Source: Erysipelotrichaceae bacterium
GTDB taxonomy: Bacteria; Bacillota_I; Bacilli_A; Erysipelotrichales; Erysipelotrichaceae
Length of the DNA stretch: 32,000 nt
Assembly (NCBI GenBank): GCA_963676105.1
Contig: OY781039.1
Location: 180,001-212,000, forward strand
Direction of reading: 5' to 3'
Numbering within the stretch: the stretch's first letter is position 1; every line of letters begins with the position of its first letter. The notes beneath the pieces were generated by a model, which was given only the letters and a program-made list of their open reading frames with translations, had not been told where the DNA came from and did no database searches. A program made the position numbers and the translations under genes. This document shows positions 1,224 to 28,992 of this stretch, in pieces.

Positions 1224-1235
1224 GGGGAGGTTAAA

Positions 1236-3131: not shown

Positions 3132-4081
3132 TTGATTCTTTTGGACGTGATTTAAGATACCTAAGAATTTCGATTACTGATCGATGCAATTTTAGATGTC
3201 AATATTGCATGCCAGAAGATGGGATTGAATCAATTTCACATGAAGACTTATTAAGTTTTGAAGAAATATCAACTTTAGTTTCACATTTTGTGAAATTGGG
3301 TGTGACTAAAATAAGACTAACAGGTGGTGAACCCTTAGTAAGAAAAGATGTAGTGAGTTTAATAAAAATGATTTCAAGTCACAAAGAAGTCAATGATATT
3401 GCGCTTACGACGAATGCAGCACTTTTAAAAGATAAGGCAAAAGAATTAAAAGATGCTGGATTAAATCGAGTCAATATTAGTTTAGATAGTTTAAAGTCAG
3501 ATCGTTTTTCATGGATTACTCGTGGTGGGAAATTGGAAGACGTATATAAAGGTATAGAAGAAGCTAAAAAAGTTGGCTTAGGTATCAAGATAAACTGCGT
3601 TATTAATAAAGGCATTAATGATGATGAGATCGATGATTTTATTCAATTGACCATTGATGAAGGTTTTGATGTGCGATTCATTGAACTAATGCCCATTGGT
3701 GAAACGGCTGACTATGCGAAAAAATACTTTTATAGTAATCAATTAATCTTAAAGAACCATCCCAATTTAAAAGCAGTAAAAGCCGAAGATATGTCATCAC
3801 CAGCAAGTTACTATCAATGTAAAGATGGCAGGGGAAGAGTGGGTTTAATCTCACCATTATCCTGTAATTTTTGTGCAAATTGTAATCGCATGCGTCTTAC
3901 ATCAGATGGTAAACTGAGACCTTGCTTACACTCAGATATTGAAATTGATTTAAAAGAAGCGTTAAGAAAAGGTGACGATATTGATGCGCTAATACAAACA
4001 GTCGTTGAAATCAAACCAGAGAAACATTTATTAGATCAACATAAATATATCGTAAGAACGATGAATAAAATTGGAGGCTAA
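3128..4081 (+). CDS. moaA: GTP 3',8-cyclase MoaA (radical SAM)
   Basis: 'CNFRCQYCMP' CxxxCxxC cluster, 'RLTGGEPL', and the C-terminal second cluster 'CNFCANCNRMRLTSDGKLRPCL'. The ATG overlaps the upstream stop (ATGA). Confidence 0.95.
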   Translation: MIDSFGRDLRYLRISITDRCNFRCQYCMPEDGIESISHEDLLSFEEISTLVSHFVKLGVTKIRLTGGEPLVRKDVVSLIKMISSHKEVNDIALTTNAALLKDKAKELKDAGLNRVNISLDSLKSDRFSWITRGGKLEDVYKGIEEAKKVGLGIKINCVINKGINDDEIDDFIQLTIDEGFDVRFIELMPIGETADYAKKYFYSNQLILKNHPNLKAVKAEDMSSPASYYQCKDGRGRVGLISPLSCNFCANCNRMRLTSDGKLRPCLHSDIEIDLKEALRKGDDIDALIQTVVEIKPEKHLLDQHKYIVRTMNKIGG

Positions 4082-4082
4082 G

Positions 4083-4562
4083 ATGGAGTTAACACATTTA
4101 AATAATCAAGGACATGGCAAGATGGTTGATGTCTCAAATAAAAATGAAACACAACGTATCGCAGTAGCTCAAGCGAAAATAAGCATGAATGCTAAAGCTT
4201 ATGAAGCCATTATTCATCAACGTCTTAAAAAAGGGGACGCCTTAGCGATTGCTCAAGTAGCGGGTATTCAAGCAGTTAAACAAACATCCAGTTTAATTCC
4301 AATGGCACATCCTTTGATGATTACATCTGTGGATATCCAATTTTATCCAAATGATGAAAAACGAGAAATAAGAATTGAATGTGAAGTACATTGTTTTGGT
4401 AAAACAGGTGTTGAGATGGAAGCCTTAAGTGGTGCATCTGTTTGCGCACTAACCATCTATGATATGGCAAAATCCTTAAATAAAAGTATGCGCATCGATG
4501 ATATTTATCTACTTGAGAAACAGGGCGGAAAATCTGGTCATTATGAGCGATCTCAAGATTAA
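4083..4562 (+). CDS. moaC: Cyclic pyranopterin monophosphate synthase MoaC
   Basis: 'MVDVSNK..T.R.A.A', 'KGDALAIAQVAGIQAVKQTSSLIPMAHPL', 'GVEMEALSGASVCALTIYDM'. I prefer the ATG at 4083 (GGAGG 5 nt upstream) over the track's TTG at 4071. Confidence 0.93.
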   Translation: MELTHLNNQGHGKMVDVSNKNETQRIAVAQAKISMNAKAYEAIIHQRLKKGDALAIAQVAGIQAVKQTSSLIPMAHPLMITSVDIQFYPNDEKREIRIECEVHCFGKTGVEMEALSGASVCALTIYDMAKSLNKSMRIDDIYLLEKQGGKSGHYERSQD

Positions 4563-4932
4563 AAAGATTCTCATAAAAGATAAATTAATCCGTGAACTTA
4601 ATCACTGTTTTGTTAGTTTAGATGGTTTAGTGGGTGATAAACATCAAGATGGCTCACTTATCTTAATGAGTGATCAAATCTATGAAGAGATGATGAATGT
4701 TAAAGACTCCGCATTATGCATGAATAAATTTTATCCCCAAATCACATTTTCAAATTTAAAGTTAGAAACAACATTAAAGATCAATTCAGTTGAATTAAGA
4801 CTTAAAGAAAAGGGTAAACTTTGTCATCAAAAAGAAGGTTGTCAGTATTTTGATAAACATAAAACTTGTCCTTTGATAACAGAAGTTTATGAATATCAGA
4901 TTTTAAATGAAGGTGAAATTAAACTCACTTAG
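4543..4932 (+). CDS. Small MOSC-like domain protein (Cys-rich variant)
   Basis: 129 aa counted from the internal ATG at 4543, which overlaps the moaC 3' end by 20 nt. 'LDGLVGDKH' resembles the MOSC 'GLxGDxH' motif, and the C-terminus carries 'GKLCHQKEGCQYFDKHKTCP'. The family assignment is by eye only. Confidence 0.55.
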   Translation: MSDLKIKKILIKDKLIRELNHCFVSLDGLVGDKHQDGSLILMSDQIYEEMMNVKDSALCMNKFYPQITFSNLKLETTLKINSVELRLKEKGKLCHQKEGCQYFDKHKTCPLITEVYEYQILNEGEIKLT

Positions 4933-4941
4933 GAGAGTGAT

Positions 4942-5436
4942 ATGTACAGATATTCCATTATTATTTCAAGTGATAAAGCAAGCACTGGTGAAAGAGAAGA
5001 CAAAGGGATTGATGCTATTCAATCGTGTTTAGATGAAAAAATTTTTGAGTGTATTTCAACTGTGATTGTACCTGATGAGATTGACGATCTTCAAAGAGAA
5101 ATTAAGCGAATTTGTGATGATGAAAAAGTTGATTTATGTTTTATTTCTGGTGGGACTGGTTTTTCAGTTCGTGATGTGACACCTGAAGCTTTAAGTCCAT
5201 TACTTGATAAACAAGTACCTGGTATATCTGAAGCAATTCGTGCTTATAGTATGACCATCACTAAAAAAGCGATGTTGTCACGAGCTATTTCAGGGATACG
5301 AAAAAATACTTTAGTGATTACCTTACCTGGTTCACCTAAGGCTGTGATTGAATCCGTTGAATTTATTTTAGAACCCCTTAAACATGGTTTAGACATTTTA
5401 ATTGGATCAGCAAGTGAGTGTGCAAGAACAGACTAA
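4942..5436 (+). CDS. moaB: MoaB/MogA-family molybdopterin adenylyltransferase-like protein
   Basis: 164 aa, RBS GGAGAG. MoCF_biosynth motifs 'ISGGTGFSVRDVTPEA' and 'LPGSPKAV'. Confidence 0.88.
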   Translation: MYRYSIIISSDKASTGEREDKGIDAIQSCLDEKIFECISTVIVPDEIDDLQREIKRICDDEKVDLCFISGGTGFSVRDVTPEALSPLLDKQVPGISEAIRAYSMTITKKAMLSRAISGIRKNTLVITLPGSPKAVIESVEFILEPLKHGLDILIGSASECARTD

Positions 5437-5439
5437 TTT

Positions 5440-6081
5440 ATGGAAATTCTTCAAATCATCTTTACAAGTCTATATGTTTCAATGAGTGCAACTTTGTTGG
5501 CGAGTATTTTTGCGATTCCTTTAGGTTTATATCTAGGGACAAAAACACATAAGTGGGCAAAACGGATTAGACCGATTCTTTCCACCCTTGCTTCACTTCC
5601 ACCAGTCATTGCCGGGGTTAGTATTTTCTTACTTCTGTCCAATGCTGGACCTTTAGGTGATTTAAGGCTTTTATATACAACGACTGCTATCATTATTGCG
5701 CAATTTATACTCGTTTTACCATTAGTGACGGTGACGATTATTCCAAGTGTCATCACCATTCGAAATGATTTTGGTGAAGTTTGTGATGGTTTGCATATCT
5801 ACGGTTTAAAACGATATTCAATGTTGATTAAAGAAATTAAAACCACCATTCTTATAGCTATGTTGTTAGGCTTTGGACGAGCGATATCTGAAGTTGGAGC
5901 GGTCATGATGGTCGGAGGGAATATTCGTTTTAAAACACGTGTAATGACGACCGCAATTGTTTTAGAAACACGTCAGGGAAACTATGAAACAGGTTTGATT
6001 TTAGGCTTAGCTTTATTGCTTATTTCTTTGAGTATACAAGCGTCAGCCCACTATTTTTTAAAGGGGAATCAAGATGATTGA
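5440..6081 (+). CDS. tupB: ABC transporter permease, tungstate (TupB-like)
   Basis: 213-aa polytopic membrane protein of the small BPD-type permease class. It lies in an operon with a TupA-type binding protein and an ABC ATPase. Confidence 0.8.
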   Translation: MEILQIIFTSLYVSMSATLLASIFAIPLGLYLGTKTHKWAKRIRPILSTLASLPPVIAGVSIFLLLSNAGPLGDLRLLYTTTAIIIAQFILVLPLVTVTIIPSVITIRNDFGEVCDGLHIYGLKRYSMLIKEIKTTILIAMLLGFGRAISEVGAVMMVGGNIRFKTRVMTTAIVLETRQGNYETGLILGLALLLISLSIQASAHYFLKGNQDD

Positions 6082-6628
6082 GTTTTCAAATATTAATCTT
6101 GCTTTTGAAAATAAAGTTTTATTAGAGGAAGCAACACTTCAATTAGAAGAACAAAAGTTGAATGTCATTATAGGATCTAATGGAAGTGGTAAGACAAGCC
6201 TGCTTAGGGCACTGGTTTATGATTATTTACCAGAATTAAAAATTAAATGGATTTATCAACCCCAATCCATCTTTCTGTTTAAGAAAAAAGTAAAAGATAA
6301 TTTCAATGATCAAAGTGTTGCACTTAGCATATTAGATCGTTTTGATGCATTAGATTTAGTTGAACAAGATGTCAAAGTTTTATCTGGAGGAGAAAAACAA
6401 ATTGTTAGTTTAGCACGTAGTTTTAGTTATCCAGCTGAAGTTTATCTCTTAGATGAACCAACAGCTCACTTAGATACAAGTATTAGACATAAAGTCTATG
6501 AACTATTAAAAGAAAAATCGATTGATAAAACAATCTTACTCATTAGTCATGATCAAAAATCTTATTTTGAAAATGCAAATCTTTTAAAGATTCAAAATAA
6601 AAAAATCAGTCAAACGAAAGGAGCCTAA
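6074..6628 (+). CDS. tupC: ABC transporter ATP-binding protein, tungstate (TupC-like), unusually compact (184 aa)
   Basis: Walker A 'GSNGSGKTS', signature 'LSGGEKQ', Walker B 'VYLLDEP', H-loop 'LLISHD'. It overlaps the tupB end by 8 nt. Confidence 0.85.
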   Translation: MIEFSNINLAFENKVLLEEATLQLEEQKLNVIIGSNGSGKTSLLRALVYDYLPELKIKWIYQPQSIFLFKKKVKDNFNDQSVALSILDRFDALDLVEQDVKVLSGGEKQIVSLARSFSYPAEVYLLDEPTAHLDTSIRHKVYELLKEKSIDKTILLISHDQKSYFENANLLKIQNKKISQTKGA

Positions 6629-6630
6629 AT

Positions 6631-7059
6631 ATGGGGCAAATCAAATCAATTAGTATTTCAAAAGAAAGGGGGAAATTAAAAGAAGCCGTTAATGAGGTAG
6701 ACATAAATCTAGAAGGTATTCTTGGTGATGGACACTCTGGTGATTGGGGAAGACAAATTACCATATTAAATTATCAAAGTTACATGCTTATCAAGAGTAA
6801 GAATCCTGAACTAGGTTTACGTCCCGGTAGTTTTGCGGAAAACATTATGATTGATGGACTTGATTTTTCGAAAATTGGTATAGGCACACAAATTCAAATG
6901 AATGATGTTGTGGTTGAAGTTACACAAATTGGAAAAGAAGATCATCCTTCGGTTGTGACTGAAAACTATGGTGTTAGTTTATTACCATATGAAGGTTTAT
7001 TTTGTAGAGTATTAAAAGCAGGGCATTTAAAAGTTAATGATTCTGCCAAAATTAATTAA
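6631..7059 (+). CDS. MOSC domain-containing protein
   Basis: 142 aa. 'GILGDGHSGDWGRQITIL', 'FAENIMIDGLDF', 'EVTQIGKEDH', 'EGLFCRVLKAGHLKVND' match small clostridial MOSC proteins commonly found in Moco operons. Confidence 0.75.
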   Translation: MGQIKSISISKERGKLKEAVNEVDINLEGILGDGHSGDWGRQITILNYQSYMLIKSKNPELGLRPGSFAENIMIDGLDFSKIGIGTQIQMNDVVVEVTQIGKEDHPSVVTENYGVSLLPYEGLFCRVLKAGHLKVNDSAKIN

Positions 7060-7075
7060 GAAACGGGGATAAAAC

Positions 7076-7924
7076 ATGAAAAAATTAATCGTTTTATTAT
7101 TAAGTGTATTTTTATTAACAGCTTGTTCTTCAGCGCCTGCTGAAGAAGAAGTCACATTACCTGAAGCTAAAACGCTTCGTCTAACAACCACAACATCAGT
7201 CAATGATAGTGGTTTAATTGAATTTTTAAGACCTTATTTATTAGAGGAAGAAAACATTACATTAGAAGTTGTATCAGTTGGTTCTGGCGCTGCTATTGAA
7301 GCTGGTATGAATGGTGATGCTGATGCGATTTTAGTTCACTCACCAGCCGCTGAAGAAACGTTTGTAGCGGATGGTTATGGTATCGCAAGAACTTCCTTTA
7401 TGCATAATTTCTTTGTGATTGTGGGACCAGCAGATGATCCTGCAGGTATTTCAGATATGAGCGCAACAGATGCATTAGCAGCGCTTGATGCGCAAAAAAG
7501 TGCTCAATTTGTTTCTCGTGGGGACAACTCAGGGACCCATAGTAAAGAAAAAGCAATTTGGAGTTTAACTGGTTTAGATTATGAGACTGTTTCTGTCGAC
7601 ACATCGTATTATGTATCAGCAGGGGCTGGTATGGGTGATACCTTGGTTATGGCAAGTGAACTTCAAGCATATACTTTAACTGATCTAGCAACTTATCTTC
7701 ATAATATGGAAAATTTAAACCTTGATATCTTAGTTAATGAAGGTTTAGATTTAATCAACGTTTATTCTGTGTTGGTTGTTAATCCTGATAAAGTGGATAA
7801 CACGGATGTTGAAACGGCTCAACGCTTTGAAACTTGGATTACATCTGATTCTACATTAGATTTAATAGCAGGCTATGGTGTTGAAGAATTTGGACAACCT
7901 TTATTCTTTAAAGGCGCTGAATAA
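7076..7924 (+). CDS. tupA: Tungstate ABC transporter substrate-binding lipoprotein TupA
   Basis: Lipobox 'LLTAC' with Cys17 (7112-7126). 'TTTTS' anion-binding motif at 7184-7198 (TupA signature 'TTTS'), followed by 'SRGDNSGTH'. Confidence 0.88.
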   Translation: MKKLIVLLLSVFLLTACSSAPAEEEVTLPEAKTLRLTTTTSVNDSGLIEFLRPYLLEEENITLEVVSVGSGAAIEAGMNGDADAILVHSPAAEETFVADGYGIARTSFMHNFFVIVGPADDPAGISDMSATDALAALDAQKSAQFVSRGDNSGTHSKEKAIWSLTGLDYETVSVDTSYYVSAGAGMGDTLVMASELQAYTLTDLATYLHNMENLNLDILVNEGLDLINVYSVLVVNPDKVDNTDVETAQRFETWITSDSTLDLIAGYGVEEFGQPLFFKGAE

Positions 7925-9773: not shown

Positions 9774-10229
9774 TTGAGCTCAAGCGAAAACAGTTTATCA
9801 CATACTAGATGGAATTGTAAGTATCACGTCGTATTCATCCCGAAGTACAGACGGAAGGTCATATATGGGAAATTAAGAGAGGATATTGGACGAATATTGA
9901 GACGACTTTGTGAAATGAAAGACGTCGAAATACTAGAGGCACATGCATGTGCCGACCATATCCATATGCTTCTGAAGATACCACCGAAGTTAAGTGTTTC
10001 CGGATTCATTGGCTATCTGAAAGGTAAAAGCACCTTGATGATCTTTGATCGACACGCCAATTTGAAGTATAAACAAGGAAACCGAAACTTCTGGGCGAAG
10101 GGATACTATGTAAGTACGGTAGGACTGAATGAGAAAACAGTTGAAGCGTACATTCGAAACCAAGAAGCAGAAGACAAATTACGAGACAACATGACAAAGA
10201 GAGAATACATTGATCCCTTTAAGGGATAG
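9774..10229 (+). CDS. tnpA: IS200/IS605-family Y1 (HUH) transposase TnpA
   Basis: 151 aa. 'YHVVFIPKYRRKV', HUH motif 'DHIHMLL', catalytic-Tyr region 'FWAKGYYVSTVG'. TTG start preceded by AAGGAGGG. Confidence 0.95.
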   Translation: MSSSENSLSHTRWNCKYHVVFIPKYRRKVIYGKLREDIGRILRRLCEMKDVEILEAHACADHIHMLLKIPPKLSVSGFIGYLKGKSTLMIFDRHANLKYKQGNRNFWAKGYYVSTVGLNEKTVEAYIRNQEAEDKLRDNMTKREYIDPFKG

Positions 10230-10456: not shown

Positions 10457-13400
10457 ATGAAAAAAATATATATCTTTACAAGCATTATTGCAGTGATTCT
10501 ATCGACAGTATTAACAAACCATGTGAATTTAGTTAAAGTAATGGCAGCAGATGCATACACTCCTGTATCTTGGCCAACAGATACTGCCTGGTTACCCTAT
10601 TTATATTCAGATGGCACGGCTGTACTAGATCCAGCTGGTGAAGAAAATCCTACACCCTCTGATATGACAAGTGGATTAACATCTGGTGTAGGTAATTTAC
10701 CAACTATTTATATCAGTATTGATAGTTCAAATGAGAATATCTTTTTTAGATATCGAGTCAAAGGTGACCCTTATGATCGTAAAGGTGGATATACATCCAC
10801 TGCATGGTTAGTGCAATTGTGGGACCCAACTACCCAAACACAAATCGGGACAGTAGGGATTGATGGGAAAGATTCTTTTAATGATTATGTTTATGTTGCG
10901 AATGGTGATGGATCACAATTTGCCAAAATATATGAAACAAATGATGATGCTTCAAGCGATACTGTTCGTGGGGTAAGAATAACACGTGCTGAAAACAATC
11001 AGTTTTTTATTGATTATCAAGTTCCTATTGCAGCTTTAAATACAGTTAATATTGGTCGAGATATTACAGCAACAACTCCATTAGCGCTATTTTATGGAAC
11101 ATCACAAGCTGCTAACTTGTCAGTTATTAATAAAGAGTGGTTAGATGATTCGGATGGTAATCCTGCAGATATTACTGACTTCTTTGTCTTGACTGGTGGG
11201 TTTGCAGATGTTAATCCTACATCTACTTCTTCGTTTAATACTTCACAAACAAATTTAAATGAACCAGATGTTATTCCTAATATAAGTATTAGTGGGTTTT
11301 GTGTTACAGGTTCTTGTCCAACGTATACAAACGATCCATTTACTTTAGATACGACAACAGATCCTGATAGCGTTCAAGTAACAGTTCAAGGGACAGTAAG
11401 TGATTATTCAGGTACAGTAACACTAAACATTTTAGGAACAGATTACACAACTACTGCTATTGATGGACAATGGTCATTGGATTTGTCGAACATAATTTCT
11501 CAATCTGGAACGTATATTGTAAAAGCATCGATTCCATATAACACTACAACCATTTCTGACACTGATACCTTTAGTGTTAATGGTGTAGGAGATAGTTTGG
11601 TGATAGATGGTGGTTATTATGTTGTAACAAGTAATTCTACCTATTCACCAACAGGTTCTTATAATTTGAGTAATCAAGGGAATGAAGTTGAATATCAAGT
11701 TAATATAAATGGGACTTGGATTAGTTTGAATAAATATAGTAGTACTAGCACATGGGATATGAGTGGCTCTATTGATTTAGTACCTGGAGAAAATCGTTTA
11801 GATGTCAGAATTATTAAAGGCAGTGATATTTTAGCGACTGCTACACAAATTATTTCGTATATTCCTAGTGGTAGTGATACATCGACTCTTGATTTAGGCG
11901 TTAATATCAGTTCGATTAACGGTACGAATCCTTCCCCAGGATTAAGCGGAACTTCGACTGGTAGTACACAGGTTGAAATTCAATTGGATGGCGTTACTAT
12001 AGCTTTTGTAACACCTGATGCGAATGGTAATTGGGAGATGCCAGCATTAGATTATCCACTAAATACTGGAACCTATACTTTTAGAGCGATTGTCCGTAAT
12101 TCAGATGGTGAAATTGCGATTGATACAATTACTCATACTGTAACTGAAGTTGCAATAAATATTGATAATGGTGCTACTTATACAACCAATGATACGCAAC
12201 CAATGATTAGTGGTAATGCAAATGTAACTGATGGCACTCAAATTACAGTTACTTTAAATGGCACTACATATACTACAACAGTGATAAATGGACGTTGGAA
12301 TATTATGCCATCATCACCATTGAGTGGGGGAACCTATACTGTAGTTGCATCTGTTGGTGGTAAAACAGCTACTCAAGAGTTGACAATAGTAACATCAACA
12401 CCTGAGTTAAGTTTAAACGGTGAGGCTAATGTTGATATAGTTGTAGGCTCTTCATATACAGATTTATCTGCTACTGCAACAGATATTTTAGATGATGAAA
12501 TTCAAAGTCGTTTAAGTACAATTAATCCTGTAAACACATCAATAATTGGTGTTTATACAGTTCGTTATAATGTTACAAATATTTATGGAAATTATGCGCC
12601 AGAAGTTACTCGCACAGTCACAGTTAGACCAGCAAGCTTAAGTTTAACTGGTAGTACTGGTAATTCAGGTTCAACCGGTCCTGCCACTGTGAGTGGTGGA
12701 ACTGCTGGAGCAACTGTCTATTTATATGATTCAGAAGGATCTCAAGTTGCTTCAGGAGTTTTAGATGAAAGTGGCAAATATACTTTCACAGGAATTAATC
12801 TTGGATCTGGATATACAGCCAAACAAGTGGTTAATAGTATTTTTAGTATTGAATCTAATACAGCAATTATTAGTGGTGAAAATAACATTCCTGTTATTGA
12901 AGAAGTTAGTGATGATACTATACAAGCAATTAATGCTTCTACATGGACTGCACCAAGTACAACAGCAAGCGATGTTGAAGACGGAAACTTAACATCTAAT
13001 ATTGTTATCACTTATTCAAGTGATGATACAGGAAGTAATGTATCTGATGAAGAATCAGCGCGCCAACATTTAGCAACTCCTGGTAACACTGTAAAGGTTA
13101 CATATGGTGGTGTAGTCGATAGTGCAACAAATCAAGCAGCAAATGTTTACGCGACATTTACGTCTGTGTCAACTCCAGTCACATCAGTCACAATTAATGG
13201 AACTTTAAAGATCGAAGAAACACTCACTACAACACTGGGACCTAGTGGATCAACAGTGACCTATCAATGGTATTGTGGCGATACTGATTTGGGTACTTAT
13301 AAACCGATTTTAGGTGCGACCAGTTCCACATATACATTAACTGCTGATGATAATAATTGTTTAATAAAAGTAGTAGTGGTAGGGACAGGTGTTTATAGTG

Positions 13401-14476
13401 GTTCCGTAAATGATGCCTCAGAGACTTCTGTTGTTAAAAAAGATGCGCCAGCGACTCCAATACCACCAACAGTCACGGACATTAAATACAATGAAATAAC
13501 AGTGGATGTAGTACCGGGTCAAGAATACTCAATAGATGGTGGTGAAACTTGGCAAAGTGGTGGAACTTTTATAGATTTAAATCAAACAACACAATATTCA
13601 ATCATTACTAGAATTAAAGAAACAAATGATACAAAACCTTCTCTTTCATCGACGGCAACTAATGCGACAACTCTAGCAATGTACACAGTTGATTTTATTG
13701 GATTTGATGGAATAACTAATGAAAAAGAAGAAAGTTTAAGTTCTGGCGATGATGCAACAGCACCAAGTTTAAGTAATAGCACAACTAAAAGATTTGTTAG
13801 CTGGAATATCGATTTTACGAATATTACTTCTAATACATCAGTTTATGCTCAATATGAAGAGATAACAGGAGATAGTGGATTAAACATTCAAGCAAGTACC
13901 TTTTTAACAAAAGTTCCAGCGTATTCAACAGATGCTTTAAATACACGTTCGGCACGTTTGACTATTGTTGAAACAGCTTATGCAAGCTTAACATCACAAG
14001 AACAAGCACTTGTCACAAGTTATATTGAAACAAACATTAATGAAGACACTGTTCATGAATATTATTTAGATGCGAGTCTTTTTGAAACAGTAAATAGTAT
14101 TGAATCTCAGGTTAATGAATCTTCAGAAGCGTTTAGTATTACAGTATCGATTCCAAGTACTTATTTATCTTTAGATTTACATTTCTTTAGAATGCATAAT
14201 TATGGGACTGATGCTGAACCTGATTATCGTTCAGAAGAACTTGCGTACATCATGGATACTAATGCGGGAACAATTACGTTTTCAACAAGTAAATTCTCAT
14301 CCTACGTTTTGGTGCTTGGTGAATCGCTGACCAGTGAAATAACTAGTACTACAACAGCTGTATCAACAGTAAGTCTTCTTCCAGATACAGGACTCAGCCA
14401 AAATATAGCTGCCATTATTGCTTTTATCTTAGGAATCCTAGGTTTAGCATTTGTCAAACTTCAAAACAATGAATAA
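10457..14476 (+). CDS. Large cell-wall-anchored surface protein (putative adhesin) with signal peptide, repeated bacterial Ig-like domains and an LPDTG sorting signal
   Basis: 1339 aa. Signal peptide ending 'VMA/ADAY'. Three related Ig-like modules ending GTYIVKASI (from 11507), GTYTFRAIV (from 12068) and GTYTVVASV (from 12329). DUF5011-like module around 12403-12630. Listeria/Bacteroides-type repeat ('YTVDFIGFDG...FVSWN...VYAQYEE'). LPDTG at 14378-14392, then a hydrophobic segment and a short tail. Confidence 0.9.
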   Translation: MKKIYIFTSIIAVILSTVLTNHVNLVKVMAADAYTPVSWPTDTAWLPYLYSDGTAVLDPAGEENPTPSDMTSGLTSGVGNLPTIYISIDSSNENIFFRYRVKGDPYDRKGGYTSTAWLVQLWDPTTQTQIGTVGIDGKDSFNDYVYVANGDGSQFAKIYETNDDASSDTVRGVRITRAENNQFFIDYQVPIAALNTVNIGRDITATTPLALFYGTSQAANLSVINKEWLDDSDGNPADITDFFVLTGGFADVNPTSTSSFNTSQTNLNEPDVIPNISISGFCVTGSCPTYTNDPFTLDTTTDPDSVQVTVQGTVSDYSGTVTLNILGTDYTTTAIDGQWSLDLSNIISQSGTYIVKASIPYNTTTISDTDTFSVNGVGDSLVIDGGYYVVTSNSTYSPTGSYNLSNQGNEVEYQVNINGTWISLNKYSSTSTWDMSGSIDLVPGENRLDVRIIKGSDILATATQIISYIPSGSDTSTLDLGVNISSINGTNPSPGLSGTSTGSTQVEIQLDGVTIAFVTPDANGNWEMPALDYPLNTGTYTFRAIVRNSDGEIAIDTITHTVTEVAINIDNGATYTTNDTQPMISGNANVTDGTQITVTLNGTTYTTTVINGRWNIMPSSPLSGGTYTVVASVGGKTATQELTIVTSTPELSLNGEANVDIVVGSSYTDLSATATDILDDEIQSRLSTINPVNTSIIGVYTVRYNVTNIYGNYAPEVTRTVTVRPASLSLTGSTGNSGSTGPATVSGGTAGATVYLYDSEGSQVASGVLDESGKYTFTGINLGSGYTAKQVVNSIFSIESNTAIISGENNIPVIEEVSDDTIQAINASTWTAPSTTASDVEDGNLTSNIVITYSSDDTGSNVSDEESARQHLATPGNTVKVTYGGVVDSATNQAANVYATFTSVSTPVTSVTINGTLKIEETLTTTLGPSGSTVTYQWYCGDTDLGTYKPILGATSSTYTLTADDNNCLIKVVVVGTGVYSGSVNDASETSVVKKDAPATPIPPTVTDIKYNEITVDVVPGQEYSIDGGETWQSGGTFIDLNQTTQYSIITRIKETNDTKPSLSSTATNATTLAMYTVDFIGFDGITNEKEESLSSGDDATAPSLSNSTTKRFVSWNIDFTNITSNTSVYAQYEEITGDSGLNIQASTFLTKVPAYSTDALNTRSARLTIVETAYASLTSQEQALVTSYIETNINEDTVHEYYLDASLFETVNSIESQVNESSEAFSITVSIPSTYLSLDLHFFRMHNYGTDAEPDYRSEELAYIMDTNAGTITFSTSKFSSYVLVLGESLTSEITSTTTAVSTVSLLPDTGLSQNIAAIIAFILGILGLAFVKLQNNE

Positions 14477-15179
14477 AAAAATCGTACTAAGCATTAAATA
14501 TATTTCAATTGCACTACTTTTATATAGTGCTTTTGTTTTGTTAACTGAAATGGTACGTTGGATGCAATTTAGTGAGACGAAAACTGAGTTGATTGAAATA
14601 CAAACTCATTCAGTAGAAGAAAAATCATTCAATGTGTTTGATAATTTAAAATCTATGAATGACGATTATATTGCATGGATATCCATTGATGATACTGATA
14701 TCAGCTATCCTATTGTTTTAGGTAAAGATAATAAGTATTATTTGAATCATGATTTCTATGGGAATGTCTTTGCTTATGGCAGTATCTTTATGGATTATCG
14801 GAACAAATCTGATTTTAGTGATGCGAATATCGCCATCTATGGACATGCAGCAAGATATAAAGCGATGTTTGGTTATTTAAATGAATATTTAGATGAAGAA
14901 TTTCTAAAAAATCATTCAATCATAAAAATCCAATTTAAGGATGAAGTAAAAGAGTTTCGTATCTTCAGTGTTTATGTAGTTGATGCGACAATTACAGGTC
15001 TTGATATTCCGTCTGATATAAAGTCGATTGACGAATTAAAAAATATGTATCAATCACAGTCATATGTAGATACAGAAGTTGATATCAGTCATGCTACACA
15101 AGTTTTATCTTTAGTATCATGTAATTATTCAATAGAAAATGGAAGAATTATTGTCCAAGCTATTCCAATTAATCCGTAA
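14469..15179 (+). CDS. srtB: Class B sortase
   Basis: N-terminal TM segment, 'SYPIVLGKDNKYYLNHDF', 'GSIFMDYRNKS', catalytic His 'IAIYGHAARYKAMF', Cys 'LSLVSCNY', Arg 'NGRIIVQA'. I prefer the ATG at 14469 (ATGAATAA overlap with the adhesin stop) over the track start at 14451. Confidence 0.9.
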   Translation: MNKKIVLSIKYISIALLLYSAFVLLTEMVRWMQFSETKTELIEIQTHSVEEKSFNVFDNLKSMNDDYIAWISIDDTDISYPIVLGKDNKYYLNHDFYGNVFAYGSIFMDYRNKSDFSDANIAIYGHAARYKAMFGYLNEYLDEEFLKNHSIIKIQFKDEVKEFRIFSVYVVDATITGLDIPSDIKSIDELKNMYQSQSYVDTEVDISHATQVLSLVSCNYSIENGRIIVQAIPINP

Positions 15180-18786: not shown

Positions 18787-19878
18787 ATGACAGAAAAAGA
18801 AAAGGAACTTCTTGAGATAATAGAGAAGAATCCACAAATATCACAAAATGAATTAGCTACACGATTGAAGATTACTCGATCGTCCGTTTCTGTGCATATT
18901 AATAATTTATCTAAAAAAGGTTACATTGCAGGTAGAGGGTATGTATTAAATCCTCGTGATTATGTCATGGTTATTGGGGCTGCCAATACAGATATACTTG
19001 GCTTTTCTAGTCAAGCAATTATTCCAAAAGATTCAAATCCGGGCCATATTAAAATTTGTTTAGGTGGAGTTAGTCGTAATGTATCTGAAAATTTAGCACG
19101 ACTTCAAACAGATGTTAAATTTTTGACTACCATTGGTGATGATGTATATGGACGACATTTACTAGATCAGTGTCAATCGTATGGGATTGATATGAGTCAC
19201 TCTTATTTGATGAAGGGCGAACCATCATCTATTTATATGGCTATTATGAATGAATCTGGTTCAATGGAATTAGCTTTATCTGATATGAGTACTTTAGATA
19301 AATTGCCTAATGATATCATTGAACAAAAGTCAGCTTTAATAAAGAGGGCTCAATTAATAATGTTGGATACAGGTTTATCTAAAAGTAGTTTAGAATATAT
19401 TACAGCTAATTTTACAGATCAAGATTTATATCTGGATCCTGTATCTATCGGTAAAGCAGAGCACGTTAAACATTTGATTTCATCTTTTCACACTATAAAG
19501 ATGAATCGATTGGAATGTGAGTATTTATCGGATATGCCAATCAATAGTATGCAAGATTTGGTGAAGGCGTCTGATTACTTTATGAATTTAGGGATAAAAT
19601 CAGTGTTTATTACCTTAGGTAAAGATGGTGTCTTTGCGAGAGATAGAAGTCAGTTCTATCACCATCAAGCAAGAAGCTTAGATATTGTCAACGAAACTGG
19701 GGCTGGAGATGCCTTTATGGCTGGTATTATATATAGCAGGTTACATGGATATAATTTAAAAGAAACATGTGAGTTTGCGACTGCAATGTCGGAAATAGCG
19801 CTAATGAGTGAAGAAACTGTTAGTCCACTTATTAGTTTAGAAAACATAGAAAAAATACTGAAAGAAATAAAAACATAA
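18787..19878 (+). CDS. psuK: Pseudouridine kinase (PfkB family) with an N-terminal winged-HTH domain
   Basis: N-terminus 'ELLEIIEKNPQISQNELATRLKITRSSVSVHINNLSKKGYI' (HTH), then a PfkB kinase ('VIGAANTDI', 'GGVSRNV', 'ETGAGDAFMAG'). It sits directly upstream of psuG. Confidence 0.8.
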   Translation: MTEKEKELLEIIEKNPQISQNELATRLKITRSSVSVHINNLSKKGYIAGRGYVLNPRDYVMVIGAANTDILGFSSQAIIPKDSNPGHIKICLGGVSRNVSENLARLQTDVKFLTTIGDDVYGRHLLDQCQSYGIDMSHSYLMKGEPSSIYMAIMNESGSMELALSDMSTLDKLPNDIIEQKSALIKRAQLIMLDTGLSKSSLEYITANFTDQDLYLDPVSIGKAEHVKHLISSFHTIKMNRLECEYLSDMPINSMQDLVKASDYFMNLGIKSVFITLGKDGVFARDRSQFYHHQARSLDIVNETGAGDAFMAGIIYSRLHGYNLKETCEFATAMSEIALMSEETVSPLISLENIEKILKEIKT

Positions 19879-19888
19879 GGGAGAATAT

Positions 19889-20809
19889 ATGACAAAATTT
19901 AATGAATTTATGGATGTATCAAATGAAGTCAAAGAAGCACTTGAAAATGGAAAGGCTGTTGTCGCATTAGAGTCAACGATAATATCTCATGGTTTTCCTT
20001 ATCCAGAAAACAAAGAATGTGCTTTAGAATCAGAAGCTAATATTAGAAAAATGGGCGCAATACCTGCGACGATTGCGATGATTGGTGGGCGTATTAAAGT
20101 GGGGTTAACAGAAGATCAAATAGAATACTTAGCCGTTAATAGAGATATTCCAAAAGCGTCAAGACGAGATGTCCCAGTGTTAATCGCTTTAGAAAAAGAT
20201 GGTGCAACAACCGTTGCGACAACAATGATGTTTGCGGAAATGGCAGGTATAAAAGTCTTTGCGACAGGTGGTATTGGTGGAGTTCACCGAAATGCTCAAG
20301 AAACTATGGATATTTCTGCAGATTTAGAAGAATTAGCGAATACATCAGTTGCGGTTGTTTGTGCTGGTGCAAAATCAATCTTAGATATTGGTTTAACAAA
20401 AGAATATTTAGAAACGAATGGTGTACCTGTTCTTGGATATCAAACTGAAGATCTTGGTGGCTTCTATACTCGCCAATCTGGTTTTAAAGTTGATCAACAA
20501 GTAGATTCAGCGATTGATATCGCAAAAATCATTGATACTAAGGCAAAACTAAAATTAAGAGGGGGCATGGTTATATCTAATCCTATCCCACAAGAATATG
20601 AAATGGATTATACCTTTATTAGCTCAATTACAGAACAAGCATTAAAAGAATCTGTTGAACAAGGTGTTAAAGGTAAAGCGACAACACCATTCTTGCTCGC
20701 TCGTATTCATGAACTGACAGAAGGAAAATCTGTTGATGCGAATAAACAACTTGTATTTAATAATGCCCGTGTGGCGGCACAAATTGCAGTAGAGCTTTCA
20801 ACATTATAA
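19889..20809 (+). CDS. psuG: Pseudouridine-5'-phosphate glycosidase (IndA/PsuG family)
   Basis: 'VVALESTIISHGFPYPEN', 'ATTVATTMMFAEMAGIKVFATGGIGGVHR', 'DISADLEEL'. Confidence 0.92.
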   Translation: MTKFNEFMDVSNEVKEALENGKAVVALESTIISHGFPYPENKECALESEANIRKMGAIPATIAMIGGRIKVGLTEDQIEYLAVNRDIPKASRRDVPVLIALEKDGATTVATTMMFAEMAGIKVFATGGIGGVHRNAQETMDISADLEELANTSVAVVCAGAKSILDIGLTKEYLETNGVPVLGYQTEDLGGFYTRQSGFKVDQQVDSAIDIAKIIDTKAKLKLRGGMVISNPIPQEYEMDYTFISSITEQALKESVEQGVKGKATTPFLLARIHELTEGKSVDANKQLVFNNARVAAQIAVELSTL

Positions 20810-26292: not shown

Positions 26293-26294
<2 letters not shown>

Positions 26295-26322
26295 AAACAG
26301 GCAAATTATTGCCTGTTTTTTT
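26293..26322 (+). terminator. Intrinsic terminator of the PTS/GH1 operon
   Basis: ACAGGCAA-atta-TTGCCTGT followed by a T7 run. Confidence 0.9.
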
Positions 26323-26376: not shown

Positions 26377-26405
26377 TTGAGCTTAGTTTGTTAATTTGTT
26401 ATCAT
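26377..26405 (+). promoter_or_regulatory. Candidate sigma-A promoter for the kamA operon
   Basis: TTGAGC, 17-nt spacer, TATCAT. This would give a leader of roughly 150 nt. Confidence 0.4.
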
Positions 26406-26561
26406 ATATGTAGATTTCATGCGCAAAATCACTTTGTGCATTCGTTAAAATTGCGTTAATATTCATGCTTTTTTAATCAATTGTTGGCTAATTTTTTTTT
26501 ATGTACATTATAGAATAATGATTTTTTTTATGTGAATGAAATCAAGAAGGAGAGTGATTAT

Positions 26562-27767
26562 TTGAATAAGATTAAGAATGAATTATTTAAAGATGTTCCA
26601 CAAGAAAAGTGGAATGATTGGAAATGGCAGGTTTCTAATCGAATTATGGATTTTGAACGCTTAAAAGGTTATGTAAACTTAAAAAATGAAGAGAAAATCT
26701 CTGATTTCCCATTAAGAATGGCGATTACTCCTTATTACTTGAGTTTGATAAATCTTAAAGATAAACAAGATCCAATACGCAAACAAGCAATACCTACCAA
26801 AAGTGAAACGCACATATCCTCATGTGATTTTGAAGATCCACTTGGTGAAGATGAAGATATGGCTGTGCCTGGATTAGTTCATCGTTATCCTGATCGTGTT
26901 TTATTATTGGTTACTGATAAATGTAGTATGTACTGTCGACACTGTACCCGTCGTCGTTTTGCTGGGCAAAAAGATAATAGTTTACCAATCAAACAAATCG
27001 ATGTGGCAATTGAATATATTGAAAGAAATACTCAGATACGAGATGTAATTTTATCCGGTGGAGATCCTTTACTACTTCCTACAGAAGCTATTGAATCGAT
27101 ATTAAAAAAATTGCGCGCAATTGAACATTTAGAAATTATTCGTATTGGTTCAAGAGTTCCAGTTGTTCTACCACAAAGGATTGATGATGAACTTGTGGAT
27201 ATGTTGAAGAAATATCACCCATTATATATCAATACTCATTTCAATCACTATAAAGAAATTACACCTGAATCTAAGGCAGCTTGTGTAAAGTTAGCGGATG
27301 CTGGCATTCCATTAGGAAACCAATCGGTTCTCCTTAGAGGTGTGAATGATTGTGTAAACATTATGAAAAAACTTGTACACGAATTACTCATGATAAGAGT
27401 TAAACCGTATTACATCTATCAATGTGATTTATCTAAGGGGATAGAGCACTTTAGAACACCTATTTCAAAAGGTTTAGAAATTATGGAAGGACTAAGAGGT
27501 CATACTTCAGGAATGGCTGTTCCAACTTTTGTAGTTGATGCACCTGGAGGTGGTGGTAAAATTCCTCTACTTCCAAATTATCTAATTTCGAGAACCTATG
27601 ATAAAACTGTTCTACGAAACTTTAGAGGTGATTTAAGTGTTTATGAAGGACCAAAAAATTATGATGGAGAATGTACGTGTGAACTTTGTCAAAATTCAAA
27701 GGAATCAGAAACGGAAGGTATCTTAGGACACCTCTTAGGTGAAAATATTGTAGGTAATCAAGCTTGA
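26562..27767 (+). CDS. kamA: L-lysine 2,3-aminomutase (radical SAM/PLP, KamA type)
   Basis: 'CSMYCRHCTRRR' (26922-26945), 'ILSGGDPL', 'YIYQCDLSKGIEHFR', 'PTFVVDAPGGGGKIP' (PLP Lys), C-terminal 'CTCELC'. I prefer the TTG at 26562 (AAGGAGAG 7 nt upstream; the N-terminus then reads MNKIKNELF...WNDWKWQ) over the track's GTG at 26532. Confidence 0.93.
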   Translation: MNKIKNELFKDVPQEKWNDWKWQVSNRIMDFERLKGYVNLKNEEKISDFPLRMAITPYYLSLINLKDKQDPIRKQAIPTKSETHISSCDFEDPLGEDEDMAVPGLVHRYPDRVLLLVTDKCSMYCRHCTRRRFAGQKDNSLPIKQIDVAIEYIERNTQIRDVILSGGDPLLLPTEAIESILKKLRAIEHLEIIRIGSRVPVVLPQRIDDELVDMLKKYHPLYINTHFNHYKEITPESKAACVKLADAGIPLGNQSVLLRGVNDCVNIMKKLVHELLMIRVKPYYIYQCDLSKGIEHFRTPISKGLEIMEGLRGHTSGMAVPTFVVDAPGGGGKIPLLPNYLISRTYDKTVLRNFRGDLSVYEGPKNYDGECTCELCQNSKESETEGILGHLLGENIVGNQA

Positions 27768-28963
27768 TTAAGACAATTACGATTATTGGGGGTGGGAATA
27801 GTGCACATGTTCTAATTCCATTACTATCAAAAACGAATTTAACAGTTAATTTACTAACACGTAAACCCGAAAAATGGTCAAATGAAATTGATCTTGATTA
27901 CATTAAACCAAATGGAAAGTTTGTGCAGAGTATGAAAGGACAAATTGATGTTATTTCATCAGATCCAAATGATGTTATTCCACAAGCTGATATCATCATG
28001 TTTTGTATACCTGTTAATGTTTATCGAGAAATGTTACATAGGATTGCACCTTTCATTAAACAAAATAAGCGCGTATATATAGGAACAGTCTATGGTCAAG
28101 GTGGTTTTAATTGGATGTGTAAAGAAATCCAAACAAAATATCATTTAGATAAACTTGTTTCTTTCGCAATTGGACTTATTCCATGGATATGTCGAACAAT
28201 TCAGTATGGTAAAAAAGGATTAGTTTATGGTGCAAAACCTGTTAACTTGGTTGCGGTTAATCCAAAACATGAATTTGCTTTACTAAACAGAGTTTTATTA
28301 TCTCCTATTGTTGAACAATGGTTTGGTCATGGTCGTTTTCAATGTGTAAACCATTTTCTCTCATTAACTTTAAGTGTTGATAATCAAATCATACATACAT
28401 CACGTATGTACGGTTTGTTTAAAGAAACTAAAGGTGTTTGGAATCAGATTGAAGATGTTCCTTTGTTTTATGGGGATTTTTCAGAAAAATCTGCGGACAT
28501 TTTAAAAGGTTTAGACGATGATTATTCGTTAATCCGTTCAGCGATTAAAAAGAAATATAAATTTAATGATTATAAGTGGATGATGGGTTATATTACACAA
28601 GATAATTTAACTAATCTCAACAACAATCAAACAATTATTGAAACTTTTGAAAATTCAAGTACACTTGGTGCCATTAAAACACCCGTTATCGAAGTTAATG
28701 GGCAATGGATACTTAACCGTAAACATCGATTCTTTTATGATGATGTATTTTATGGGTTATGTATTGCGAAGTGGTTTGCTCAGAAACTAAATATTCAAAC
28801 ACCTCATATCGATGACCTTTTAATGTGGGCACAGAGTTACTTAAATGAGCCAATCATAGAAAATAATCGACTAAACTGTGATTCGAGTATGAAAAAAAAT
28901 CCGTTTAAATTCGGACTACCCAGTATTTATGGTTATACTTCGCTTGAGCAAGTAATAGATTAA
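27764..28963 (+). CDS. Opine dehydrogenase-family protein (octopine/nopaline dehydrogenase-like, NAD(P)-dependent)
   Basis: 399 aa. N-terminal Rossmann 'ITIIGGGNSAHVLIPLLS'. Family-like blocks 'GLIPWICRTIQYGKKGLVYGAK', 'NQIIHTSRMYG', 'VPLFYGDFSEKSADILKGLD', 'DDLLMWAQSYL' resemble animal and bacterial opine dehydrogenases as I recall them. The TTG start overlaps the kamA stop (cTTGAtt). Confidence 0.72.
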   Translation: MIKTITIIGGGNSAHVLIPLLSKTNLTVNLLTRKPEKWSNEIDLDYIKPNGKFVQSMKGQIDVISSDPNDVIPQADIIMFCIPVNVYREMLHRIAPFIKQNKRVYIGTVYGQGGFNWMCKEIQTKYHLDKLVSFAIGLIPWICRTIQYGKKGLVYGAKPVNLVAVNPKHEFALLNRVLLSPIVEQWFGHGRFQCVNHFLSLTLSVDNQIIHTSRMYGLFKETKGVWNQIEDVPLFYGDFSEKSADILKGLDDDYSLIRSAIKKKYKFNDYKWMMGYITQDNLTNLNNNQTIIETFENSSTLGAIKTPVIEVNGQWILNRKHRFFYDDVFYGLCIAKWFAQKLNIQTPHIDDLLMWAQSYLNEPIIENNRLNCDSSMKKNPFKFGLPSIYGYTSLEQVID

Positions 28964-28967
28964 AACT

Positions 28968-28992
28968 AACGGATAATAATTTTATCCGTTTT
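28968..28992 (+). terminator. Intrinsic terminator after the opine dehydrogenase gene
   Basis: AACGGATAA-taatt-TTATCCGTT followed by tt. Confidence 0.7.

Follow-up and report, generated by a model that had tools for sequence, protein, structure and literature searches.

Lysine 2,3-aminomutase (LAM), the radical S-adenosylmethionine (SAM) enzyme encoded by kamA, is known in four contexts: lysine fermentation, synthesis of the osmolyte N-epsilon-acetyl-beta-lysine, modification of elongation factor P (EF-P), and antibiotics. Opine dehydrogenases (ODHs) of Pfam family PF02317 that have been characterised, such as octopine dehydrogenase (OcDH), CntM, and Ocs/Nos, work in the reductive direction. 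In a 32,000-nucleotide stretch of an Erysipelotrichaceae genome (assembly GCA_963676105.1, contig OY781039.1, positions 180,001 to 212,000; "the window" below), a kamA gene runs directly into a gene for an ODH homologue. We propose that this pair is a two-gene operon for the conversion of lysine to beta-lysine and then to an N-(1-carboxyalkyl)-beta-lysine, a reading to which we give about an even chance (roughly 0.5). The identities of the two enzymes are well supported by their sequences, and the chemistry of the second step is what we infer from the family to which the second enzyme belongs.

The most similar arrangements described so far are AblA-AblB of methanogens and kamA-yodP of Bacillus, which are likewise two-gene units led by an orthodox LAM. 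In both AblA-AblB and the proposed route, the second enzyme would cap an amine of beta-lysine and leave a net-neutral zwitterion. The partner in AblA-AblB, however, is a GNAT acetyltransferase that acts by acetylation, whereas the partner here is an NAD(P)H-dependent ODH that would act by reductive carboxyalkylation. Neither the ORFs (open reading frames) of the window nor the tabulated genes of related loci include a GNAT, and because the unit lacks one, it may work like AblA-AblB without being a member of that system. A different parallel is offered by CntK/CntL/CntM, where an amino-acid-isomerising enzyme (the racemase CntK there, the mutase KamA here) is encoded with a PF02317 dehydrogenase, but CntL and transporters are missing from the present locus and the fold match to CntM is the weaker one. 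The EpmB/EpmA system for beta-lysylation of EF-P is not matched, as KamA scores below the EpmB cut-off and the window holds no epmA.

Lysine-derived opines are not foreign to bacteria. In Lactococcus lactis, N5-(1-carboxyethyl)ornithine synthase (CEOS) uses NADPH to join pyruvate reductively to the side-chain amine of either ornithine or lysine; this enzyme is of another protein family, the alanine dehydrogenase/PNT type, and we know of no aminomutase partner for it. Lysine-derived or opine-type products are also found in bacterial glycans, in the O-antigens of Providencia rustigianii O14 and Providencia alcalifaciens O35 (PMC10609480), but no glycan genes flank the kamA-ODH pair, and a link between the ODH family and those O-antigens is our suggestion. 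Judging from the genes, then, both enzyme families are familiar, and we did not find their combination or its predicted product described: full-text literature searches returned neither a kamA-ODH pathway, in line with what a sequence-only reading of the window had stated, nor any beta-lysine opine.

Identity of the two enzymes

Every element of the KamA signature listed in the sequence-only reading can be read in the sequence: the radical-SAM triad CSMYCRHC, the pyridoxal phosphate (PLP)-lysine loop VVDAPGGGGKIP, the segments YQCDLS and VVDAP, and the C-terminal CTCELC. The protein matches TIGR03820 (lysine 2,3-aminomutase, the "AblA" equivalog) at 562.5 bits, above the cut-off of 525.4. Three other identities were rejected, as scores fell short of the cut-offs for glutamate 2,3-aminomutase (459 versus 650), arginine 2,3-aminomutase (385 versus 600), and EpmB (248.8 versus 369.3). 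Its Pfam domains are Radical_SAM and LAM_C; this LAM_C domain and the zinc site are features that full-length LAMs typically have and that EpmB lacks. When the protein was aligned with the LAM of Clostridium subterminale (2A5H; 392 residues, E 6e-175), the radical-SAM cluster CxxxCxxC, the PLP-lysine loop (by the criterion GGGGK), and the CxCxxC zinc site all corresponded. The YQCDLS and VVDAP segments are identical in the two proteins, so both aspartates, Asp293 and Asp330 of the clostridial enzyme, which we take to bind the epsilon-amine of lysine, are kept. That KamA is an orthodox LAM is thus well supported by sequence comparison.

The second ORF begins MIKTITIIGGGNSAH and has the N-terminus IIGGGNSAH, with the Rossmann motif GGGNSAH at residues 9 to 15. 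Its proposed membership of the ODH family was borne out by a PF02317 (Octopine_DH) score of 79.8 bits against a cut-off of 30, and by catalytic residues and predicted fold that agree with it. The profile NAD_Gly3P_dh_N reached only 25.4 bits, a weak match to the N-terminal Rossmann part. Matches to glycerol-3-phosphate, F420, and prephenate dehydrogenase models were likewise weak and confined to this N-terminal part. An identity as a glycerol-3-phosphate dehydrogenase, a ketopantoate reductase, or a prephenate dehydrogenase was rejected, the corresponding folds ranking far below those of ODHs. A profile built from 29 homologues and compared with all sequences in the PDB matched a single family, the OcDH of the scallop Pecten maximus, along its full length (E 1.8e-33).

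By both profile and fold, Pecten OcDH (3C7A/3C7D/3IQD) is the closest solved relative, though identity is only about 20%. Residues H211, R322, D327, Q112, and C143 align with OcDH His212, Arg324, Asp329, Gln118, and Cys148, so the His-Asp dyad, the arginine sensor, and the equivalents of Gln118 and Cys148 are all retained; H211, D327, and R322 are invariant in the 29 homologues and in a wider set of 163. We take Gln118 to be the pyruvate-binding residue of the scallop enzyme. The functional residues described for OcDH are His212 (part of the His-Asp dyad, in contact with the carboxylate), Asp329, Arg324 (the NADH sensor), and Cys148, and we found no mention of a role for Gln118 in the same paper (PMC2924402). 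In place of Glu142, which holds the arginine guanidinium in OcDH, the present family has an invariant glycine (G137), which argues that the enzyme is not arginine-specific and is not an octopine enzyme. It further differs from its scallop relative in having a bacterial host and in being genetically linked to an amino acid mutase. The sequence T32-R33-K34 after the second beta-strand is at most a weak hint of NADPH use.

An AlphaFold model of the ODH, predicted from the alignment, had a pLDDT of 92.7 and a pTM of 0.91. The top 14 fold matches in the PDB were all opine dehydrogenases (E 3.5e-27 to 1e-12), led by OcDH (3iqd/3c7d; TM-score 0.80, E 3.5e-27) and followed by Arthrobacter CENDH and then by the yersinopine, staphylopine, and pseudopaline dehydrogenases. 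These last three, the CntM-type enzymes, superimpose at a TM-score of about 0.6 with a root-mean-square deviation of 8 to 9 A. Ketopantoate reductases enter the list at E 1e-10 with a TM-score of about 0.5, mandelate dehydrogenase likewise comes behind the ODHs, and in a test on the two-domain fold the model lay nearer to ODHs than to glycerol-3-phosphate dehydrogenase, ketopantoate reductase, or mannitol dehydrogenase. With OcDH first in both the profile and the fold ranking, the protein does not score best as any of these other Rossmann enzymes. Each test of sequence and of modelled structure thus pointed to a genuine member of the opine dehydrogenase family. In a recent survey, the ODHs whose activity is confirmed number only about 11, and the present type is not among them (PMC10787698). 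The sub-family described here is bacterial, is without a characterised representative, and lies nearer to the invertebrate enzymes of anaerobiosis than to the known bacterial ODHs.

Recurrence of the pair and the wider dehydrogenase family

In the window, the TGA stop of kamA (27765-27767) overlaps the TTG start of the ODH gene (27764-27766), the 4-nucleotide (nt) coupling from which the sequence-only reading had started. To see the pair in other genomes, 169 loci with ODH homologues were gathered from genomes, metagenomes, and exact-protein look-ups, viewed with up to 10 kb of flank per side (6 kb in some), and scored for kamA by tblastn with KamA. With L170 added, a locus reached from a KamA query, kamA was present directly upstream and on the same strand at 13 non-redundant loci (the window and L006, L007, L008, L009, L010, L012, L013, L087, L166, L167, L169, and L170). 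These are labelled Erysipelotrichaceae (the nearest one syntenic with the window), Christensenellaceae, or "Clostridia" metagenome-assembled genomes (MAGs), or are unbinned contigs. The two genes overlap by 4 nt in the window, L003, L004, and L166 and are separated by 16 to 40 nt elsewhere. Conservation of the adjacency therefore holds in the sense that all 13 loci keep the same order at -4 to +40 nt, but it is restricted to a single Firmicutes branch, and the rest of this large ODH family works without kamA.

What surrounds the pair is far less constant. At least five unrelated flanking arrangements were seen, with no third gene conserved among them. One has PTS-cellobiose genes and glycerate kinase; another has alanine racemase and 5-formyltetrahydrofolate (5-FTHF) cyclo-ligase on one side and RsmD and CoaD on the other; a third has a PEP-utilising enzyme and DUF7064 on one side and PfkB on the other; and two more exist. 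Across this reshuffling the two proteins diverge together, their identities to the window's KamA and ODH falling in parallel (86/79, 69/63, 66/61, and 65/59%).

Trees of the two proteins tell the same story. In a neighbour-joining tree of 163 ODHs that includes the window's own and from which L170 is absent, all 12 kamA-linked ODHs fall within one clade of 17. Ordinary clostridial LAMs are 64 to 67% identical to the window's KamA, a range comparable to that of the more distant ODH-linked KamAs. When 131 KamAs were placed in an unrooted tree, those linked to an ODH nevertheless all lay on one side of a split, among 36 leaves that include no named Clostridium, Tepidibacter, or Bacteroidales LAM. 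This split was used for a blind prediction: KamA P0275, chosen from the 36 leaves and encoded on a 348-kb contig for which no ODH had been recorded, proved to have an ODH gene 24 nt downstream (locus L170). Four further pairs are implied by contigs of the same size in the lists of KamA and ODH matches. Across the genomes compared, the kamA-ODH pair behaves as a self-contained and co-inherited unit.

Beyond this clade, the ODH family is compact, with about 50% identity across many phyla and 85 columns that are at least 97% conserved, and its members keep other company. A Carboxylicivirga isolate and a Chloroflexota MAG each have a solitary ODH of about 50% identity, and L014 and L088, basal members of the kamA clade, are also without kamA. 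Of the immediate neighbours tallied over 160 loci, the commonest were these: RimK-like ATP-grasp ligases occurred about 20 times, TupA-like ATP-grasp proteins 8 to 10 times, PaaK/CapK-like AMP-ligases 8 times, and kamA 11 times, a count that omits L013 and L170. The ligase-linked loci also hold glycosyltransferases, UDP-glucose/GDP-mannose dehydrogenase, epimerases, Wzx-like flippases, and PGA_cap, which marks them as surface-polysaccharide loci (examples are L020, L038, L041, L043, L053, L056, L059, L062, L065-L067, L072, L077, L083, and L096). The combination of an ATP-grasp protein or AMP-ligase with glycan genes was seen at about 40 of the 160 related loci and at none of the kamA-ODH loci.

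Carboxyethyl amino acids are known as parts of such glycans: N-epsilon-(1-carboxyethyl)-L-lysine is amide-linked to galacturonic acid (GalA) in P. rustigianii O14, and alanopine is carried on the sugar Qui4N in P. alcalifaciens O35 (PMC10609480). We found no literature tying these glycan opines to an ODH, or ODHs to ATP-grasp or polysaccharide genes. By analogy, the kamA-less ODHs are candidates for the enzymes that make carboxyethyl-amino-acid decorations of O-antigens or capsules.

The kamA-less branch of the family appears to be mobile. Within it, 42 of the 163 homologues share at least 90% protein identity despite records labelled as different phyla, namely Marinilabiliales isolates, Zixibacteriota, Verrucomicrobiota, Aegiribacteria, Desulfobacterales, and Sulfurimonas (L016, L024, L028, L034, L035, L038-L042, L050, L064, L111-L140, and others), the shared DNA comprising the ODH gene and some 50 to 130 nt upstream. 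A 60-kb Zixibacteriota contig, for example, matches the Ancylomarina longa isolate at 86% nucleotide identity along 1243 nt that begin some 40 nt ahead of the ODH start codon and end just beyond the stop, whereas the flanks show no similarity. By these comparisons the branch behaves like a single gene that moves horizontally, with the proviso that mis-binning may affect some of the short contigs.

Locus L168, a member of the kamA clade, gives a view of an ODH that has apparently lost its partner. It reads (5667-7197) ACT, alanine racemase, 5-FTHF cyclo-ligase, a 200-amino-acid protein, and then ODH, RsmD, and CoaD, with kamA missing; a periplasmic-binding-protein gene comes after the ODH. A promoter segment shared with L167 (84% over 67 nt) now lies directly upstream of the ODH, which keeps all 62 family-invariant residues checked. 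The arrangement looks like a natural deletion of kamA.

Proposed route and competing explanations

All parts of the sequence-only interpretation that could be computed came out as predicted, and the interpretation as a whole is partly supported. It had noted that the partner genes of the established LAM systems (ablB/yodP, kamDE/kdd/kce/kal, epmA) are missing from the window, and none of them was found there, nor was the cntL of staphylopine-type synthesis. According to the model that we favour, kamA and the ODH gene would form a translationally coupled operon encoding a short biosynthetic route. KamA, using its radical-SAM and PLP chemistry, would convert L-lysine to (3S)-beta-lysine, and the ODH would then condense beta-lysine, through one of its amino groups, with a 2-oxo acid, of which pyruvate is the likeliest, and reduce the imine with NAD(P)H. 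The expected product is an N-(1-carboxyalkyl)-beta-lysine such as C9H18N2O4. The order of the steps follows from the requirements of the first enzyme: since the aspartate pair kept in KamA serves to hold an unmodified epsilon-amine, and the PLP aldimine can form only with a free alpha-amine, KamA should act on lysine rather than on a lysine opine, placing KamA first and the ODH second.

Several lines of evidence favour the biosynthetic direction. No transporter, regulator, or fermentation gene travels with the pair: no opine or amino acid transporter or regulator adjoins it in the neighbourhoods viewed, and no lysine-fermentation genes (kamDE, kdd, kce, kal) occur in the 32-kb window or in the flanks of related loci. 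Biosynthetic settings such as ablAB typically have a LAM with no kamDE, the reactions of characterised PF02317 enzymes are reductive, and the sister ODHs sit in glycan biosynthesis loci beside amide-forming ligases. The product would probably be a cytoplasmic zwitterionic metabolite, for which candidate roles are those of a compatible solute like N-epsilon-acetyl-beta-lysine, of a pyruvate/NADH sink as in marine invertebrates (molluscs), or of a building block that ligases encoded elsewhere would use. By their record names, several carriers stem from metagenomes of cold seeps, sulfidic springs, and other saline or anoxic sites, which is compatible with a solute role and is not evidence for it. 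We put forward more tentatively, at somewhat less than even odds, the specific version in which the operon would make a beta-amino-acid opine, N-(1-carboxyethyl)-beta-lysine, that serves anaerobic Firmicutes either as a compatible solute or as a sink for pyruvate and NADH that does not acidify, and in which other members of the family would supply carboxyethyl-amino-acid decorations of surface glycans.

A number of observations weigh against this proposal. About 90% of the sampled ODH homologues have no kamA nearby, and even inside the kamA clade, three nested members (L011, L086, and L168) have an intact ODH and no kamA within the available DNA. L168 is the most telling of these, being syntenic with L004, L166, L167, and L170 and yet devoid of kamA. 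Three intact ODHs of this kind imply that the enzyme is not strictly dependent on a neighbouring kamA; either kamA has been relocated within these genomes, or the ODH does not strictly need beta-lysine. All carriers of the pair are uncultured. We also know of no characterised PF02317 enzyme that sets a precedent for a beta-amino acid or an epsilon-amine as the nucleophile.

The residues of the ODH offer little help in deciding its substrate. A first comparison found eight positions that are near-invariant in 146 kamA-less ODHs and changed in the kamA clade (T154V, C183V, K189H, D240S, R281N, S294T, L377K, and S383Y). N281 lies on a helix face built of the invariant residues Y276, D280, T283, and N284. 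The nested kamA-less members share these changes, and the basal members retain R281. A stricter control leaves four fixed changes in the kamA clade, and an unrelated clade of three members has three, so that these changes do not prove a different substrate. We accordingly downgraded the substrate switch that these residues had seemed to indicate, and clade-specific residues are a weak sign, at best, of a changed ODH substrate.

Four other explanations of the pair deserve consideration. The two enzymes could be co-regulated without acting consecutively, the ODH making an ordinary alpha-amino-acid opine (of the alanopine or strombine type, or N-epsilon-carboxyethyl-L-lysine) and KamA separately making beta-lysine, both in a shared stress response involving, for example, osmolytes or redox balance. 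Such an arrangement would suit an ODH that is about 50% identical to its kamA-less relatives, shares the 85 conserved columns with the whole family, is set apart by few diagnostic substitutions, and can stand alone inside its own clade. It fits less well with the overlap, strict gene order, co-divergence, and joint relocation over at least five contexts, all of which are typical of consecutive pathway steps, or with the cationic nature of free beta-lysine, for which no accumulation in unmodified form is known, the familiar solute being its N-epsilon-acetyl derivative. We regard it as fairly unlikely. Also to be weighed is a catabolic role, in which the ODH would oxidatively cleave an imported lysine opine (N-epsilon-carboxyethyl-lysine, lysopine-like) to lysine and pyruvate and KamA would feed a beta-lysine fermentation encoded elsewhere. 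Against this stand the missing fermentation and transporter genes, which are found beside the pair in no neighbourhood, and the placement of the rest of the family in biosynthetic glycan loci; known bacterial opine catabolism, moreover, relies on flavin oxidases and ABC transporters. Opine dehydrogenase reactions are reversible, however, the persistence of the ODH without an adjacent kamA in L168, L011, and L086 would be accounted for, and KamA is about 65 to 70% identical to the LAMs of lysine-fermenting clostridia. Taken together, these points leave catabolic entry improbable.

A third alternative, raised in the sequence-only reading, casts the pair as a source of an opine metallophore precursor by analogy with CntK/CntL/CntM, KamA being the amino acid modifier and the ODH the equivalent of CntM. 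The shared Pfam family and the appearance of CntM-type enzymes among the fold matches are what this idea can draw on; against it, no nicotianamine-synthase-like CntL, exporter, or importer was found near any copy, and the fold is much nearer to scallop OcDH (TM-score 0.80) than to the CntM types (about 0.6). The suggestion has come out weak, and we consider it very improbable. Least probable of all is a fortuitous adjacency of two unrelated genes. An ODH family that is mobile as a single gene could land beside kamA by chance, but chance would hardly produce 13 loci with the same order and strand at -4 to +40 nt, congruent clades, and a blind prediction that succeeded.

Should the proposed route from lysine to a beta-lysine opine be correct, it would be a fifth physiological context for LAM and the first function assigned in a large, horizontally mobile bacterial family of scallop-type ODHs. 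The pair predicts a concrete new small molecule. Opine dehydrogenases are sought as biocatalysts for reductive amination, and their toolbox would be enlarged by an enzyme able to use a beta- or diamino acid.

Locus boundaries, leaders, and neighbouring genes

The features of the locus are collected in Table 1. Both ORFs lie where the sequence-only reading had placed them (26532-27767 for the maximal extent of the first, 27764-28963 for the second), with the exception that GTG 26532 is probably 30 nt too far upstream as the start of kamA. The TTG codon at 26562 has an AAGGAG sequence (26547-26552) 9 nt before it, and an orthologous KamA of 87% identity is called at 401 amino acids, in agreement with this later start.

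Table 1. Features of the kamA-ODH unit, in positions of the window
Feature	Position	Strand	Remarks
Upstream intrinsic terminator	26293..26322	+	Belongs to 6-phospho-beta-glucosidase gene; 5' boundary of kamA-ODH unit
Promoter-like site	26377..26405	+	TTGAGC-17-TGnTATCAT (extended TG)
5' leader, ~150 nt	26411..26561	+	Two small hairpins, U6 after second
kamA, lysine 2,3-aminomutase, 401 amino acids	26562..27767	+	TTG start; maximal ORF from GTG 26532
ODH gene, 399 amino acids	27764..28963	+	TTG start, 4-nt overlap with kamA stop
Hairpin 3' of ODH stop	28968..28990	+	Weak terminator, poor U-tract; -10 kcal/mol, z -3.6

The pair had been described as bracketed by terminators, and this is secure on one side only. 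The upstream terminator is strong, a 12-bp hairpin (26293-26320) followed by U7 (-14.4 kcal/mol, z -5.6). The downstream hairpin is real, but its U-tract is poor and the consensus scan reports it on the minus strand only, and this poor tract makes insulation from the glycerate kinase gene that begins at 29013 uncertain. GC content is uniform over the pair and its flanks (0.31 to 0.34), and a horizontal-transfer island in the window is unsupported.

An untranslated leader of 150 to 360 nt always precedes kamA (in the window, L007 at 4428-4775, L009 at 4483-4781, L010, L166, L167, L008, L169, L012, and L087). That of the window includes a hairpin at 26444-26477 (-7.1 kcal/mol) and, taken whole, has no significant structure (z -0.54); it is possibly an attenuator. 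The stretch from about 26388 to the kamA start codon shares 83% identity with its orthologous counterpart in the leader of L006. No Rfam family matched near kamA at the gathering threshold in the window and 12 related loci, and the leaders of the window, L007, and L009 gave no match even at E values up to 10. The idea of a new shared leader RNA was dropped, as an alignment of nine leaders reached 47% column identity without revealing a credible common block, and no complex 9-mer was common to at least four lineages. A terminator-like hairpin with a U-run was present 45 to 97 nt before the start codon in 6 of the 12 leaders scanned, five of them kamA leaders, and the kamA leaders may thus represent lineage-specific attenuation.

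The sole Rfam match was a purine riboswitch (RF00167, 50.2 bits) at 9685-9788 of L006, upstream of purE-purK and unrelated to kamA. L006 is a syntenic Erysipelotrichaceae MAG, and this region of it corresponds to DNA past the end of the window.

Elsewhere in the window, a molybdenum/tungsten cofactor cluster occupies 12-7924, with two MoeA genes, one of them fused to a periplasmic-binding-protein-like domain (1236-3131), together with MoaA, MoaC, a MoaB/Mog-like gene, an ABC ATPase, a MOSC protein, and a PBP_like_2 binding protein. An IS200-like (Y1_Tnp) transposase gene at 9774-10229 lies between a flavodoxin-like gene and a large surface-protein gene, and the region 10457-15179 encodes a 1339-amino-acid protein that bears bacterial Ig-like surface domains and, after it, a sortase. 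At 18787-20809, a gene for a fused helix-turn-helix (MarR-like) and PfkB kinase protein adjoins an Indigoidine_A (pseudouridine glycosidase-like) gene, and by its domains this pair looks like one for pseudouridine utilisation in which a regulator domain is built in.

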